64,000 nucleotides of DNA from a phage. Below the pieces are notes generated by a model that was not told the DNA's origin, made no database searches, and was given only the letters and a program-made list of their open reading frames with translations. Both the position numbers and the translations under genes were made by a program. The stretch is from the sequence record PQ724394.1; one strand, given 5' to 3'. Below, piece by piece: positions 12,745-57,893 of this stretch (positions are counted from its first letter, which is position 1; the number at the start of each line of letters is the position of its first letter).

Positions 12745-13033
12745 ATTTTTTCCAGTCAGAAATCATATGAATCTCTTGGTCATACGTCAAGAGACTGCGA
12801 GTAATAATACCCTTACACGGCCCTGAGATGAACTCGAGGGTGAAGTAAGGAACCTGTTTCATTAATCGGATGCTTGGGGCATGACATCTAAAACGAGAGC
12901 CCTTAAAGGGCCCTGACATGAATACATATTCCAATGGATAGAAATAAGCATATTCGAAATTTGCAGTAAGGTCCTCTCTTCGAACCTTACGTGAGAAATA
13001 ACAGAACTCAAAAAGCTCTTCATCAGTCATCAT
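12737..13033 (-). CDS. hypothetical protein with internal duplicated SGP-x-KG motif (98 aa)
   Basis: Two copies of a Y/F-x-LE-x-x-F/I-x-SGP-x-KG segment within 98 aa. Confidence 0.45.
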   Translation of the reverse strand: MMTDEELFEFCYFSRKVRREDLTANFEYAYFYPLEYVFMSGPFKGSRFRCHAPSIRLMKQVPYFTLEFISGPCKGIITRSLLTYDQEIHMISDWKKYV

Positions 13034-13557
13034 TGCATTCCTATCACAAAGAACAGTGGCAGAGGTTTAGAACCCTGGCACATAAATTTGTTAATCATTA
13101 CCTGGTAAGCTTCATAGAACTTATCCATCGATGGAAGGCGCATTGGCTCTTCGATAATAATCAATAATCGAGTAACTGATAGACCACGATACTTATGGAA
13201 GTTATCTTCGTCTAAAAATGAACGCACAGTATCATATACAACAAACCCAGGACCTTCTACCTGAAGGTGTGGGTGGGCCTTAGAAACCCTTTTTATTATA
13301 TTACAGATTTCTCGTGAGCGATGCGAAGAACTCGACATAACAATCACATCATTACCCTTGGAAACCCAATCAGCCGCGAACTGGGCAAGGGCACTTGTTT
13401 TACCTGTTTGACGCCCACCGTCAAGTCGAAGAGTACCAAACTCTTGCATTCTTGAAGTAGGTTCGTACCAGGTATATTGGTCTGAGTCTAAACGTTCAAT
13501 GGCGCGTTCAGCGAAGGCGTGCATTAAGGTTAGATAAATAGGGGTTAAAAATTTCAT
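13030..13557 (-). CDS. P-loop NTPase-like hypothetical protein (175 aa)
   Basis: Walker A-like GGRQTGKTS and hydrophobic-acidic LLIIIEEP. Confidence 0.45.
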   Translation of the reverse strand: MKFLTPIYLTLMHAFAERAIERLDSDQYTWYEPTSRMQEFGTLRLDGGRQTGKTSALAQFAADWVSKGNDVIVMSSSSHRSREICNIIKRVSKAHPHLQVEGPGFVVYDTVRSFLDEDNFHKYRGLSVTRLLIIIEEPMRLPSMDKFYEAYQVMINKFMCQGSKPLPLFFVIGMQ

Positions 13558-13704
13558 AGTGGTCTCTTAGTTGTGGGCCGTTCCTTGGCACATTAATTCG
13601 TCCCTTTCTGCATTTACCCATTACCGCACTTGGGCTCGACCTTATTACAGGTTGGCAGGAGTCCCTCACAGAATTGTGAGGTCCAGGTTGCTCCCATTTA
13701 ATTA

Positions 13705-14064
13705 TTAAAGATGGTCAAGTGCTGGGTTGTGAGGTTTTTCTGCTTTAGTAGTGTTTTTGTGCCAATCTGATTTAGAGACACGAATTGCATCAGCGCCATA
13801 AGAACTCTTAAGGATGCCTTTTTTATTGTACACACTTACTGAAGTAAGAGAATCACCGTTCCAAGTAGCATGGACGAAGTTGGATTTAGATTTAAGCTCT
13901 TTAGCCAGGCTCTGATTAGTAGCCATAGAAGCAAAATCTTTACCCGTAACTTTAAAGACTTCAGACGGGTTCAGGCCTTCTTTAGCCTTAGCCAACTGTT
14001 CAGGCGACATACCTTCATTAATGCGTTGGGTAGATTCTGTAATAAATTCTTGATAAGTTTTCAT
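13705..14064 (-). CDS. internal-protein-like protein with capsid-targeting leader (119 aa)
   Basis: N-terminal MKTYQEFITE matches the T4 internal-protein capsid-targeting sequence; adjacent to denV/e as ipII/ipIII are in T4. Confidence 0.55.
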   Translation of the reverse strand: MKTYQEFITESTQRINEGMSPEQLAKAKEGLNPSEVFKVTGKDFASMATNQSLAKELKSKSNFVHATWNGDSLTSVSVYNKKGILKSSYGADAIRVSKSDWHKNTTKAEKPHNPALDHL

Positions 14065-14106
14065 ATTATTCCTTAAGTTGATAGAAGTATTCTATCACGG
14101 ATTTAA

Positions 14107-14523
14107 TTAAGCGTAAATAGCCTTGCCATAGTGTTTGTACCAGGTAGGACGTTGTGCAATTTTTTCATCCAAACGGGCTTGTGAAATAGCGATAGAAGCT
14201 TCGTGAGGAACATAATCACCACGGAATTCCTGAGGAATATCACTAATGTCCTGGACTGTAGTATCCTTGATATTAAAGCCACGTTTTAAACATTCAGCTA
14301 TAAGCTCAATTTGACGCTTACGTAAAAATTCAAGCTTATCATAAAAGAATGTAACATGGCCCGTACCAAGTATAAAAGTAGGGCTGATTTTAAAATCACG
14401 AACACGTTTACCGTTAGCAACATGCTTACGAACCGCACCGAAAACACGTGGTAATTCACGGTATTCAGCCATTAAGTGTTGGTCAGCCAATTCAGATACT
14501 AAGGTAAGGTTGATACGAGTCAT
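14107..14523 (-). CDS. denV: endonuclease V (pyrimidine-dimer DNA glycosylase)
   Basis: 138 aa, near-identical to T4 endonuclease V as recalled ([28 protein letters not shown]...). Confidence 0.9.
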
Positions 14524-14583: not shown

Positions 14584-15072
14584 TTATCTATAAGCGGCCC
14601 AAGTACCTGTTTTAAAGGCGGCGATAACACGCTTGGCACGATTCGGGGTTTGCTTGTACCAACGAGACTGCGCCAGGTTAACTGCGGCGTCATCCCAACG
14701 TTTCTGTTGGAGCATACGCAGAGAGTTGGTAAACCCCGCTACACCAGCTTCACCCATTTGGAAGACCATATTAATCAATGCACAACGACGAACTTCGTCC
14801 AGCACATCATAAACTGGTTTCAATTTAGGATTACGCATTATAGCTCTACGAGCATTTTCCACTGAACGATTAAAGAGTTGTTCAGCTTCAGCCATAGTAA
14901 TACGACCATTACAAACTCGACCCATAAGCTTATCAAGTTCAGCGCGAGCAACATCTTTAGATGGGTTCTTGGTAACTAACTGGCCTATACCAATAGTCCA
15001 ATAACCTTCAGTGTCTTTATAAAGATTTAAATCAAGACCTTCGTCTTGACGTAACATATCAAAAATATCCAT
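14584..15072 (-). CDS. e: lysozyme (endolysin)
   Basis: 162 aa; strongly T4-lysozyme-like ([30 protein letters not shown]...[15 protein letters not shown]). Confidence 0.95.
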
Positions 15073-15103
15073 AATTACCTCCTGATTATAGGAGGTATTT
15101 ATA

Positions 15104-22863: not shown

Positions 22864-23481
22864 CTATTTACGAGTCTTTTCGAACTGAGCTGCGTCTCCG
22901 GCCAGACGACGTGCTTGACGAAGTTTGTTATCAATTTCTTCGCGCATAGGCTGGGTGTACTTAAGGCCTTCAACTGTCAGGTAAAGACGATAGAGGTCCG
23001 GCGTGTCCAGGTTGTTAATGTGTTGGCCGTTACGAAGGGCATTGAATTCACGAACAACCTGTTTTGTTTCAGATTCGATTTCTGAAATCAAAGAAGCTAG
23101 CTGGTTATATTTTTTAACAATAGTAGTGGTGTCAAACTTGATTTTAGATTTAGGAGCTTCTTTTACAGGCTCTGCTTTAGGCGCCGGTTTCGGTGCTGCA
23201 ACTTTGGTTGGGGCTGCTGGTTTAGCAACAGGAGCTTTAGCTGGTTTAGCAGGCTTAGTAGCGCCACCGGCTACGATATCTTTAAAAGCTTTGGAAGCTT
23301 TGTAATATTCTTTCTGGCTACTAGTATCAAAACCATACATATCATAAACGTTTTTAAAGAACTCAGTAGTGGTTTTAGTCCCGGAAATTTTATCATAAGC
23401 CGCTTGCCACATATCTTTAGTCATGCGCAAGCCGGCTTCACTCAGAACGCTTTCGTTCAAAAATTCATTGTAAGTTTTCAT
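22864..23481 (-). CDS. internal-protein-like protein with capsid-targeting leader and Ala/Pro/Lys-rich histone-H1-like region (205 aa)
   Basis: N-terminal MKTYNEFLNE leader; low-complexity PAKPAKAPVAKPAAPTKVAAPKPAPKAEP segment; TATAAATA late promoter upstream. Confidence 0.55.
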   Translation of the reverse strand: MKTYNEFLNESVLSEAGLRMTKDMWQAAYDKISGTKTTTEFFKNVYDMYGFDTSSQKEYYKASKAFKDIVAGGATKPAKPAKAPVAKPAAPTKVAAPKPAPKAEPVKEAPKSKIKFDTTTIVKKYNQLASLISEIESETKQVVREFNALRNGQHINNLDTPDLYRLYLTVEGLKYTQPMREEIDNKLRQARRLAGDAAQFEKTRK

Positions 23482-23509: not shown

Positions 23510-23517
23510 TATTTATA
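23510..23517 (-). promoter_or_regulatory. late promoter TATAAATA (minus strand)
   Basis: Minus-sense TATAAATA about 30 nt upstream of the ATG at 23481. Confidence 0.55.
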
Positions 23518-24180: not shown

Positions 24181-24482
24181 GTAACCTTGTCGGGGTTCCA
24201 CCTGCTAGGCAAGTGTTTGTACGAAACGCCGGGATTCGAACCCGGTTATTAAGCAGTTGACGCTACTCAATATTTTTTTAAAAGGCCATATCTCGACCAT
24301 ATCCGAACGTTCCGTCAAAAACGCTACTCGGCTTACGGCAAAGATATTTCCTCGAATCGATAATTCGATGCGCCGTTTCAGCTGTGATAGTAAAGAACCA
24401 GAACACAGTAAAACTGTGGGAGGAACTATACTCCAGGGAACTTCAGTCCGACGACTTACCGGTAGCGACCCGGTTTCTTGTT
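24181..24482 (-). ncRNA. candidate structured stable RNA(s) or degenerate tRNA-like elements adjacent to the tRNA cluster
   Basis: No credible ORF; contains canonical T-arm-like CCGGG-TTCGAAT-CCCGG and several hairpins but no complete cloverleaf by hand. Confidence 0.25.
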
Positions 24483-25749: not shown

Positions 25750-26004
25750 TTATTTTAGGTCTTCTAGACGTTTCTTCATCTTAGAGCCATTCTTAGCAAT
25801 TTCGCCAGCGTCTGAACATAGAGCCAAAAGGGCTTTAACTTTAGTCTGGTCACCTTTAAAGGAACTCGGGTCAACAGAATCAGCAAGTTCTTTAATACGC
25901 GCGAACAAACGTTCGGCTTCAGCTAAAGCAGTACCAAGTTTTACTTCCATACCGTGTGAGGATTCGGTTAGAGGTTGCGCAGAAAATTCTTGATAAGTTT
26001 TCAT
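25750..26004 (-). CDS. internal-protein-like protein with capsid-targeting leader (84 aa)
   Basis: N-terminal MKTYQEFSAQ leader; ipI position downstream of 57B. Confidence 0.55.
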   Translation of the reverse strand: MKTYQEFSAQPLTESSHGMEVKLGTALAEAERLFARIKELADSVDPSSFKGDQTKVKALLALCSDAGEIAKNGSKMKKRLEDLK

Positions 26005-55984: not shown

Positions 55985-56412
55985 TGTTCCTTATCCCTGA
56001 TGATTACGAATTAACTCTAGAAAGCGTAGAGGCCAAAATTCCAGAAGCACAGGGACGTTTTGCTACTCTTTCTGAAGCCCTCGAGAAAAGCGATATAAAT
56101 AATCTTGTAGAGAACATGATTGCTGATGGTGATATCGATACCGCTATTGCCATCGCCTCTTTGAATGAAAATATGGCTCTTAACGAATTTATCGTTAAGC
56201 ACGTCTCTTCTAAAGGTGAGCTTACTCGTACTAAAGATATTAAAACCCGTCAACGCAACGCTTATCAAACGACCGGGTTGTCTAAAGCAAAACGCCGTCA
56301 GATTGCTCGCAAAGCATCTAAAACCAAACGTGCTAATCCATCTATTCAAGTACGTGCCGAACGTAAGCGTAAGAAAGCTCGTTCTAAACGTAAAGCCTTT
56401 GGACTTAACTAA
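55984..56412 (+). CDS. 68: gp68 prohead core protein
   Basis: 142 aa (T4 141 aa); basic C-terminus; synteny. Confidence 0.8.
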
Positions 56413-57047
56413 TGAAACCTGAATTGCTCATCGAACATTGGGGACAACCAGGTGAAATTATCGATGGGGTTCCGATGTTGGAATCTCATGATGGAAAAGA
56501 TTCTGGACTTGCCCCAGGCCTTTATATAGAAGGCATATTCATGCAAGCCGAAGTGGTTAACCGTAATAAACGCCTTTATCCGAAACCTATTTTGGAAAAA
56601 GCTGTTGCTGATTATATGGCAGAACAGGTTGCTACTAAACAAGCTTTAGGAGAATTAAATCATCCGCCTCGTGCTAACGTCGACCCTATGCAAGCCGCTA
56701 TTATTATTGAAGATATGTGGTGGAAAGGTAATGACGTTTATGGACGTGCTCGTATTATTGAAGGCGACCATGGTCCTGGTGATAAACTAGCTGCTAATAT
56801 TAGAGCCGGTTGGGTGCCTGGTGTTAGTTCTCGTGGTCTAGGTTCTTTAACCGAAACCAATAAAGGATATAAGCGTGTAAACGAAGGTTATAAATTAACC
56901 GTCGGTGTTGATGCAGTATGGGGTCCATCTGCTCCTGATGCTTATGTAACTCCTAAACAAATTACAGAATCACAAACGGTAGATACCGATACCAGTGCCG
57001 ATGACGCCTTTATGGCTCTCGCAGAGGCCATGAAAAAAGCGTTATAA
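56412..57047 (+). CDS. 21: gp21 prohead core protease
   Basis: 211 aa (T4 212 aa); synteny between gp68 and gp22. Confidence 0.9.
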   Translation: MKPELLIEHWGQPGEIIDGVPMLESHDGKDSGLAPGLYIEGIFMQAEVVNRNKRLYPKPILEKAVADYMAEQVATKQALGELNHPPRANVDPMQAAIIIEDMWWKGNDVYGRARIIEGDHGPGDKLAANIRAGWVPGVSSRGLGSLTETNKGYKRVNEGYKLTVGVDAVWGPSAPDAYVTPKQITESQTVDTDTSADDAFMALAEAMKKAL

Positions 57048-57077: not shown

Positions 57078-57893
57078 ATGCTTAAAGAACAACTGATCGC
57101 CGAAGCACAGAATATTGATGCTTCCGTTGCTCTTGACAGTATTTTCGAATCAGTTAATATTTCTCCGGAAGCAAAAGAAACTTTCGGCACTGTATTCGAA
57201 GCTACCGTCAAGCAACATGCCGTTAAACTGGCTGAATCTCACATCGCTAAAATCGCTGAAAAAGCGGAAGAAGAAGTTGAGAAAAATAAAGAAGAAGCTG
57301 AAGAAAAAGCTGATAAGAAAATCCAAGAAGCTGCCGGTCGTTTCCTTGACCATGTTGCTAAAGAATGGATGGCTGAAAACCAGCTGGCTGTTGATAAAGG
57401 TATTAAAGCCGAACTGTTCGAATCCATGTTGATGGGTATGAAAGAACTGTTTGTTGAACATAACGTGGTTGTTCCAGAAGAAGCAGTAGACGTTGTCGCT
57501 GAAATGGAAGAAGAATTGGCTGAACAGAAAGCTGAAACCGCTCGTTTGTTCGAAGAAGTTGGCAAGCGTGACGCATATATTAATTACGTACAGCGTGAAC
57601 AAGCTGTTATGGAAGCAACTAAAGACCTGACTGAATCTCAGAAAGAAAAAGTTAGTTCTCTGGTAGAAGGCATGGATTATTCCGATGCATTTGGTAAAAA
57701 AATTGGCGCTATCGTTGAAATGGTTAAAGGCCAGACTGACGTTGAAAAACCAATCACCGAAGCCGCTATAAATAAAACTGAAGACGATGCTGCAGCACTG
57801 AATTACATTTCGGAAGCAGTTGAAGAAAAAGGCGCTAAGCCTACCCTGTCCTTCGCGGACCTGTCTGCAATCGCAGCATCTCGAATTTCTTAA
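57078..57893 (+). CDS. 22: gp22 prohead core scaffold protein
   Basis: 271 aa; E/K-rich helical; synteny. Confidence 0.9.
   Translation: MLKEQLIAEAQNIDASVALDSIFESVNISPEAKETFGTVFEATVKQHAVKLAESHIAKIAEKAEEEVEKNKEEAEEKADKKIQEAAGRFLDHVAKEWMAENQLAVDKGIKAELFESMLMGMKELFVEHNVVVPEEAVDVVAEMEEELAEQKAETARLFEEVGKRDAYINYVQREQAVMEATKDLTESQKEKVSSLVEGMDYSDAFGKKIGAIVEMVKGQTDVEKPITEAAINKTEDDAAALNYISEAVEEKGAKPTLSFADLSAIAASRIS

Follow-up and report, generated by a model that had tools for sequence, protein, structure and literature searches.

The internal proteins (Ips) of phage T4 carry a short N-terminal leader that takes them into the head. For T4 IpIII, the first ten residues suffice for head incorporation, residues 4 and 7 being the determinants of targeting and residues 8 and 10 those of processing, and the cleavage by gp21 falls after glutamate (PMC9026906). 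The ten-residue leader alone packages foreign proteins, which are later delivered to the next host (PMC3012670, PMC9026906). For a long time, IpI was the only Ip with a known role, that of an inhibitor of GmrS/GmrD; IpIII was then found to be required on strain ECOR17 (PMC9391042, a preprint), and in 2025 inhibition of GmrSD was reported for Ip2 and Ip3, the enzymes being those of ECOR21 and ECOR17 (PMC12373910). Each of Ip1, Ip2 and Ip3 is strictly specific for one GmrSD variant, the three having only the leader in common, and the Ip locus has been called a hotspot of injected anti-defence proteins, with "at least 10" Ips in relatives (PMC12373910). According to PMC9026906 and PMC12373910, polymorphism of the Ips was already described by Repoila et al. 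1994.

We analyzed a window of 64,000 nucleotides, i.e., the whole stretch of DNA under study, from a phage (PQ724394.1). Here, an open reading frame (ORF) near the lysozyme gene, listed first in Table 1, has much in common with ipII and ipIII of T4: the leader is the same apart from one alanine-to-threonine change (A9T), the I-x-E protease site is the same, the protein is of similar basic character, and the gene lies in the same neighborhood and on the same strand, behind the late promoter of e, where it is likewise dispensable and variably present. The differences are in the cargo, i.e., the part of the protein behind the leader, which has no BLASTP match to IpII or IpIII outside the leader; in the position, on the opposite side of denV; and in the targets, which are known for IpII and IpIII (GmrSD of ECOR21 and ECOR17), whereas the target for this ORF is a guess based on analogy.

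The source phage, judged by nucleotide identity, is Dhakavirus-like and one of the T-even coliphages. Over the 2.1 kb that surround the ORF, identity is 98.4% to an unverified record, "phage Ec2-ASingh", and 91-97%, in the aligned parts, to JS10, dhabil, AnYang, WG01 and others.

The leader-bearing gene and its predicted expression signals

The ORF starts with ATG, and its translation begins MKTYQEFITESTQ (longer N-terminal stretch: MKTYQEFITESTQRINEGMSPEQ). A preliminary description of this DNA had recognized the internal-protein leader here, and the comparison to T4 bears this out: nine of the ten residues are the same as in MKTYQEFIAE of IpII and IpIII, and the sole change, at residue 9, falls on the free "x" of the I-x-E protease site. 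All residues of experimentally demonstrated importance (Y4, F7, I8 and E10) are retained, and a motif scan found the gp21 motif L/I-x-E at the end of the leader (I8-T9-E10). The leaders of AnYang IpII and JK1 Ip4 are identical to that of the ORF, with the same ITE variant. A degenerate DNA pattern for MKTY-x-EF has three matches in the window versus 0.00 expected (100 shuffles), so that the leader match is not attributable to chance; all three are starts of ORFs, at 14064, 23481 and 26004. The I-N-E at codons 15-17 is a possible further gp21 site.

This is a real gene under strong purifying selection. Between the ORF and its AnYang orthologue, there are 31 nucleotide differences, with 27 silent codon changes and four changes of amino acids (dN/dS ~0.04). 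The window also encodes the enzyme expected to remove the leader (gp21) and the scaffolding core protein thought to bind it (gp22), with the portal and major capsid genes close by.

Table 1. Features of the window; positions are those of the whole stretch.
Feature	Position	Strand	Basis
Putative internal-protein precursor ORF, 119 aa, PHROG 3966 family	13705..14064 (stop codon included)	minus	ORF call and translation
Predicted capsid-targeting sequence MKTYQEFITE, ending in I-x-E gp21 cleavage motif	14035..14064 (codons 1-10)	minus	translation; comparison to T4 IpII/IpIII
Second possible gp21 site, I-N-E (codons 15-17)	14014..14022	minus	motif scan; L-N-E in AnYang
Shine-Dalgarno AAGGAA, 4 nt before ATG	14069..14074	minus	read from sequence
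Ribosome-site-plus-leader module, 42 nt, TTAAGGAATAAT+ATG...GAA, in full TTAAGGAATAATATGAAAACTTATCAAGAATTTATTACAGAA	14035..14076	minus	AnYang and JS10 comparison
Promoter-like site TTTACG-17-TAGAAT with TG extension, overlapping the end of denV	14089..14117	minus	consensus scan
Cassette, 411 nt (spacer, ORF, 9 nt), cleanly absent from dhabil	13696..14106	minus	blastn of denV-to-vs.8 regions
denV, upstream neighbor	14107..14523	minus	Pfam Pyr_excise, E 1e-14
Lysozyme gene e, upstream of denV	14584..15072	minus	Pfam Phage_lysozyme
T4-type late promoter TATAAATA before e, nearest upstream of the ORF	15096..15103	minus	pattern search
Conserved non-coding element, 136 nt, between Ip cassette and vs.8	13560..13695	minus	
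Core of the element, 38 nt, CCAACCUGUAAUAAGGUCGAGCCCAAGUGCGGUAAUGG	13618..13655	minus	nearly invariant in ~1000 phage records
vs.8 homologue, downstream neighbor	13030..13557	minus	PHROG 1488, E 1e-68; synteny with annotated RB69 and JS10 vs.8
Second leader-bearing ORF, 205 aa, MKTYNEFLNE...	22864..23481	minus	PHROG 2280, unknown function
Third leader-bearing ORF, 84 aa, MKTYQEFSAQPLTE...	25750..26004	minus	PHROG 3499, "internal head protein", E 4e-45
gp21 prohead protease	56412..57047	plus	Pfam Peptidase_S77, E 1e-103
gp22 scaffolding core protein	57078..57893	plus	Pfam T4_CASP, E 2e-90

As for the other two leader-bearing ORFs, the 205-aa protein has an L-N-E site and a middle part rich in Ala, Pro and Lys, and it has its own late promoter, TATAAATA, at 23510-23517; a Pfam scan of this protein gave no match. 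The leader of the 84-aa protein is degenerate: in MKTYQEFSAQPLTE, residues 8-10 do not form an I-x-E, and an L-x-E first occurs at residues 12-14. This protein resembles RB69 ORF127c.

The pattern search found no late promoter belonging to the ORF itself, the nearest TATAAATA being that before e, ~1 kb upstream, and no terminator-like site was predicted on the minus strand between that promoter and the ORF. In T4 and AnYang, the only exact TATAAATA of the corresponding stretch is likewise just before e; thus, the T4 ipII and ipIII genes, whose products are proven to be packaged, share the layout of the ORF, with the e promoter upstream and none nearer. The promoter-like site that overlaps the end of denV is of the sigma-70/early type, and such sites are not above chance in the region. 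RB69 ORF124c is preceded by the same TTTACGCTTAA...-10 layout. We also noted that the classic control element of gene e is conserved, at 15076-15103: the hairpin TACCTCC...GGAGGTA, with which TATAAATA overlaps, would hide the ribosome site of e in longer early transcripts.

The variable locus and the borders of the cassette

The preliminary description had placed the ORF downstream of denV, rather than between denV and e where T4 has ipII and ipIII, and had viewed the locus as rearranged and probably hypervariable. Both statements hold when gene orders are compared across annotated relatives (Table 2). The gap between e and denV in the window is only 60 nt, and thus there is no ipII or ipIII at that place in the source phage. 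The number of leader ORFs between denV and vs.8 varies from 0 to 3, the content of the e-denV interval varies independently of it, and there are four arrangements even within Dhakavirus. The single cargoes that the window, JS10 and JK1 have between denV and vs.8 are mutually unrelated. Since the extra ORFs of the tabulated relatives all start with MK(T/M)Y-x-(E/N)F, a leader gene downstream of denV is common, and with Ip polymorphism on record since 1994, this is not a new kind of rearrangement.

Table 2. Gene orders around denV in the direction of transcription; relatives are given as annotated.
Phage	Gene order	Leader ORFs between denV and vs.8
Window	Nudix gene, e, denV, ORF, 147 non-coding bases, vs.8 homologue	1
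T4	e, ipIII, ipII, denV, vs.8	0
JK1 (Tequatrovirus)	e, denV, Ip4, vs.8	1
dhabil (Dhakavirus)	e, denV, vs.8	0
JS10	e, ipIII, ORF0112, denV, ORF0110, vs.8	1
AnYang	e, ORF058, IpIII, IpII, denV, ORF054, ORF053, vs.8	2
RB69	e, ORF127c, denV, ORF125c, ORF124c, ORF123c, vs.8	3
Av-05	e, ORF00179, denV, three leader ORFs, vs.8	3

Comparison to dhabil sets the outer borders. This phage matches the window on the two sides of the cassette, at 93% and 98.5% identity; the match runs to the stop codon of denV and starts anew at position 13695, continuing downward. On this comparison, the ORF gene is a dispensable cassette, present in some close relatives and absent in others.

The inner border is visible in JS10 and AnYang. 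Identity between JS10 and the window is 98.5% from denV to the end of codon 10 of the ORF, after which the two can no longer be aligned, JS10 ORF0110 being a different cargo behind the same leader. AnYang carries both cargoes, the window type and the JS10 type, in tandem, with a perfect (100%) second copy of the 42-nt module between ORF054 and ORF053; a deletion between the two module copies would yield exactly the JS10 arrangement. The break at codon 10 in JS10, together with the second copy in AnYang, points to the ribosome-site-plus-leader DNA as the left-hand crossover point. On the right-hand side, the point at which the sequences become similar again lies within the conserved stretch before vs.8, and we infer that the 42-nt module and this stretch serve as recombination anchors. 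The products of JK1 Ip4, JS10 ORF0110 and AnYang ORF053 have cargoes unrelated to that of the ORF and share with it the interval, the leader and the DNA module; they are alternative cassettes.

A conserved non-coding element upstream of vs.8

The sequence at which similarity resumes contains a short core that is widespread in phages. We found the core in T-even relatives of Escherichia, Klebsiella, Kosakonia and Edwardsiella, which were examined in detail, and, from match lists, in those of Serratia and Yersinia. In every T-even locus examined it lies just upstream of vs.8, including that of T4, where it is unannotated. It was also found in unrelated Vequintavirus phages, beside a tRNA array, and in Pseudomonas phage PsgM04F, inside a tRNA array and on the tRNA strand. 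It should be noted that the "Campylobacter phage" A147 is classified as Vequintavirus and that C11 matched the same core; these records (MG065644.1 and MG065652.1) may carry a wrong host label.

Several explanations of the element were rejected. A search of 185,579 bacterial and archaeal genomes, and of E. coli genomes, did not find the core, which rules out a copy of a host sequence; there is no match in Rfam 15, and the element is not a tRNA. A conserved small ORF was rejected as well: the 27-codon frame seen in the window lacks an ATG at the corresponding position in T4 and, by hand translation, contains an in-frame stop codon in Vequintavirus.

We think that the element may be an undescribed structured RNA, a reading that is based on the following covariation counts. 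At the closing base pair of the core, covariation is seen (A-U 18, U-G 3, U-A 2 and C-G 1), and the pair is never broken. For the RB69/AnYang type of the element, RNAalifold predicted a long-range helix in which CG/AU/GC and CG/GC exchanges occur, plus one more exchanging pair, AU/CG, and in the T4/window type the 5' domain shows AU-to-GC and hairpin exchanges. The folding energy of the single sequence is not unusual (z ~-0.4). In a study of the T4 transcriptome, RNAC and RNAD are the sole phage non-coding RNAs named (PMC9697503), and the element may be more novel than the ORF itself.

Elsewhere in the window, ARAGORN called a 97-nt "tRNA-Phe (AAA)" at 24219-24315 (minus strand), beside ordinary tRNAs for Arg, Asn and Met. 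Both the length and the anticodon are odd, and the call could reflect an atypical tRNA, some other small RNA or an artefact.

The cargo family and its possible function

The mature domain had been left unrecognized in the preliminary description, and it has stayed so at the level of function. A Pfam scan of the ORF protein gave no match, even at E<=1, a PADLOC scan gave none, and comparison of the cargo to solved structures and folds gave none. Similarity to characterized inhibitors, including Ip1, Ip2 and Ip3, was not detectable by sequence or by fold. The protein does match PHROG 3966 (E 6e-26), a family of unknown function, and its matches to the "internal head protein" families of PHROGs are faint and driven by the leader.

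The ORF protein is 100% identical in phage Ec2-ASingh and 94-97% identical in 12 further Dhakavirus-like records, and distant homologues (28-38% identity), RB69ORF123c among them, are present in another 78 records, of which the ones examined belong to Mosigvirus or resemble it. The cargo family is thus found in ~90 sequenced coliphages of two genera. An exhaustive phmmer search of 1.84 billion representative proteins returned seven matches, of which only those of the Dhakavirus and Mosigvirus groups are genuine; the remaining five (galaxin-like, FAD-binding fragments, helicase with C-terminal repeats, RTX and CHU_C proteins) were rejected because they are long, unrelated tandem-repeat proteins whose scores sum many weak repeat matches. 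A word-indexed search of 5.8 billion proteins found the cluster of close orthologues only, and the same search with a Mosigvirus query found two Mosigvirus clusters.

All named members of the family are annotated as "hypothetical protein", save one "RNA polymerase ADP-ribosylase" (ESCO10, OM386655.1). This label looks like an annotation error: Pfam finds no such domain, the protein has 119 aa, and the label occurs only once. Literature searches on RB69ORF123c and on the virion proteomics of JS98-like phages yielded nothing useful and no proteomic or expression report for the family. Our own claim is a modest one, namely that on these searches the family appears to be restricted to two coliphage genera and that its label as a putative internal protein, like the clear outline of its cassette borders, is new here.

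RB69ORF123c and its Mosigvirus orthologues in PHROG 3966 are informative, as they have a homologous cargo (32-42% identity, depending on the member and the method; E 1e-14 by BLASTP and 5e-10 by phmmer), the same leader and the same place in the locus, that of the last gene before vs.8. They differ in length, having 109 aa, without the six residues that follow the leader and without the C-terminal tail. In RB69 itself the leader reads MKTYQEFIAA, with E10 replaced, whereas ITE is retained in other Mosigvirus members; the family therefore does not strictly depend on the canonical cleavage site. In RB69ORF123c, the I-E-E formed by residues 21-23 might replace the lost site. In the sequences examined from both genera, the leader is intact except in RB69 and in one 5'-extended gene call.

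Since a single-sequence AlphaFold model was poor (pLDDT 66), we used a model built from four sequences (mean pLDDT 76.5). The N-terminal 30 residues are helical and of low confidence, and residues 31-110 form a confident compact alpha/beta domain, with pLDDT of 81-90 per 10-residue block. It should be noted that T4 IpI*, the injected inhibitor of GmrS/GmrD (E. coli CT596), is also a small compact alpha/beta protein, delivered by way of an N-terminal leader that is cleaved off, and that the function proposed below is modeled on it.

We regard it as likely that the ORF encodes a packaged, protease-trimmed and injected internal protein of the T-even type, probably a specific inhibitor of host restriction. 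We infer the late expression, packaging, cleavage, injection and target as follows. The protein would be made late, from a transcript starting at the promoter before e, and residues 1-10 would direct it to the scaffolding core that gp22 forms in the prohead, where gp21 would cut after E10 (I-T-E) and perhaps also after E17 (I-N-E). The basic cargo of ~11-12 kDa thus released would be retained in the head beside the DNA and injected into the next cell, in which, by analogy with T4 Ip1, Ip2 and Ip3, it would most likely bind and block one variant of a first-line host nuclease. Our best guess at the target is a type IV restriction enzyme of the GmrSD type, directed against DNA with modified cytosine; as the cargo is without similarity to characterized inhibitors, this is a guess by analogy of class. 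Homologous recombination at the anchors of the cassette, of which the 42-nt module is common to all Ip genes, probably adds, removes and swaps cargoes between phages.

The competitor that survives best agrees on packaging and injection and assigns the protein another target, such as type I or type III restriction, BREX, a sensor or a host process; we hold this to be rather unlikely. In keeping with such a target, the cargo has an orphan fold that matches neither Ip1-3 nor any solved structure, its family spans Dhakavirus and Mosigvirus, and other proteins packaged in the T4 head, e.g., Alt, differ in activity (PMC9026906). Conversely, all three Ips with a known target act on enzymes of the GmrSD family (PMC12373910), and an enzyme is unlikely, given ~80 structured residues and no match to a catalytic domain. 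The genera that share the family may differ in DNA modification, that of RB69 being arabinosyl-hmC; such a difference would speak against a target that depends on one particular sugar.

A generic basic head-filler, neutralizing the charge of the DNA or aiding its packaging or ejection with no specific host target, is improbable in our view. The mature protein is indeed basic, with a pI of 9.5 compared to 9.56 for T4 IpII and 9.65 for IpIII, and T4 internal proteins contact the phosphates of DNA through lysines (PMC3012670). However, the gene is absent in the close relative dhabil and T4 has no leader ORF between denV and vs.8, the folded domain is conserved more tightly (dN/dS 0.04) than bulk charge would need, and IpII and IpIII, once viewed likewise, proved to be specific inhibitors (PMC12373910). 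Least credible is an unpackaged protein, acting in the infected cell (for example early, from the adjoining sigma-70-like promoter) or heading for loss, whose leader would merely have come along when the shared 5' module recombined: the adjoining early sigma-70-like site, the lack of an own late promoter and the damaged cleavage site of the RB69 homologue are what it has in its favor, against the intact leader in the sequences examined from both genera (RB69 and the one 5'-extended call excepted), the strong purifying selection on the ORF, and the sufficiency of the T4 leader alone for packaging.

An injected inhibitor of restriction, the reading that we prefer, bears on the earliest stage of infection, as injected internal proteins act before any phage gene expression. 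The three Ips studied so far each disable one restriction enzyme and decide which wild E. coli T4 infects, so that each unstudied cargo family is a candidate inhibitor and a probe for a defence variant. We also entertain, tentatively, the narrower possibility that this cargo is a new-fold inhibitor of a host defence beyond the three known GmrSD variants, on a cassette exchanged between Dhakavirus and Mosigvirus; if true, the cargo would be a handle for finding that defence. The members of PHROG 3966 can be re-annotated as putative internal proteins, and the clean boundaries of the cassette show how Ip genes may be shuffled, which could be useful for the prediction and engineering of host range in therapeutic T4-like phages.
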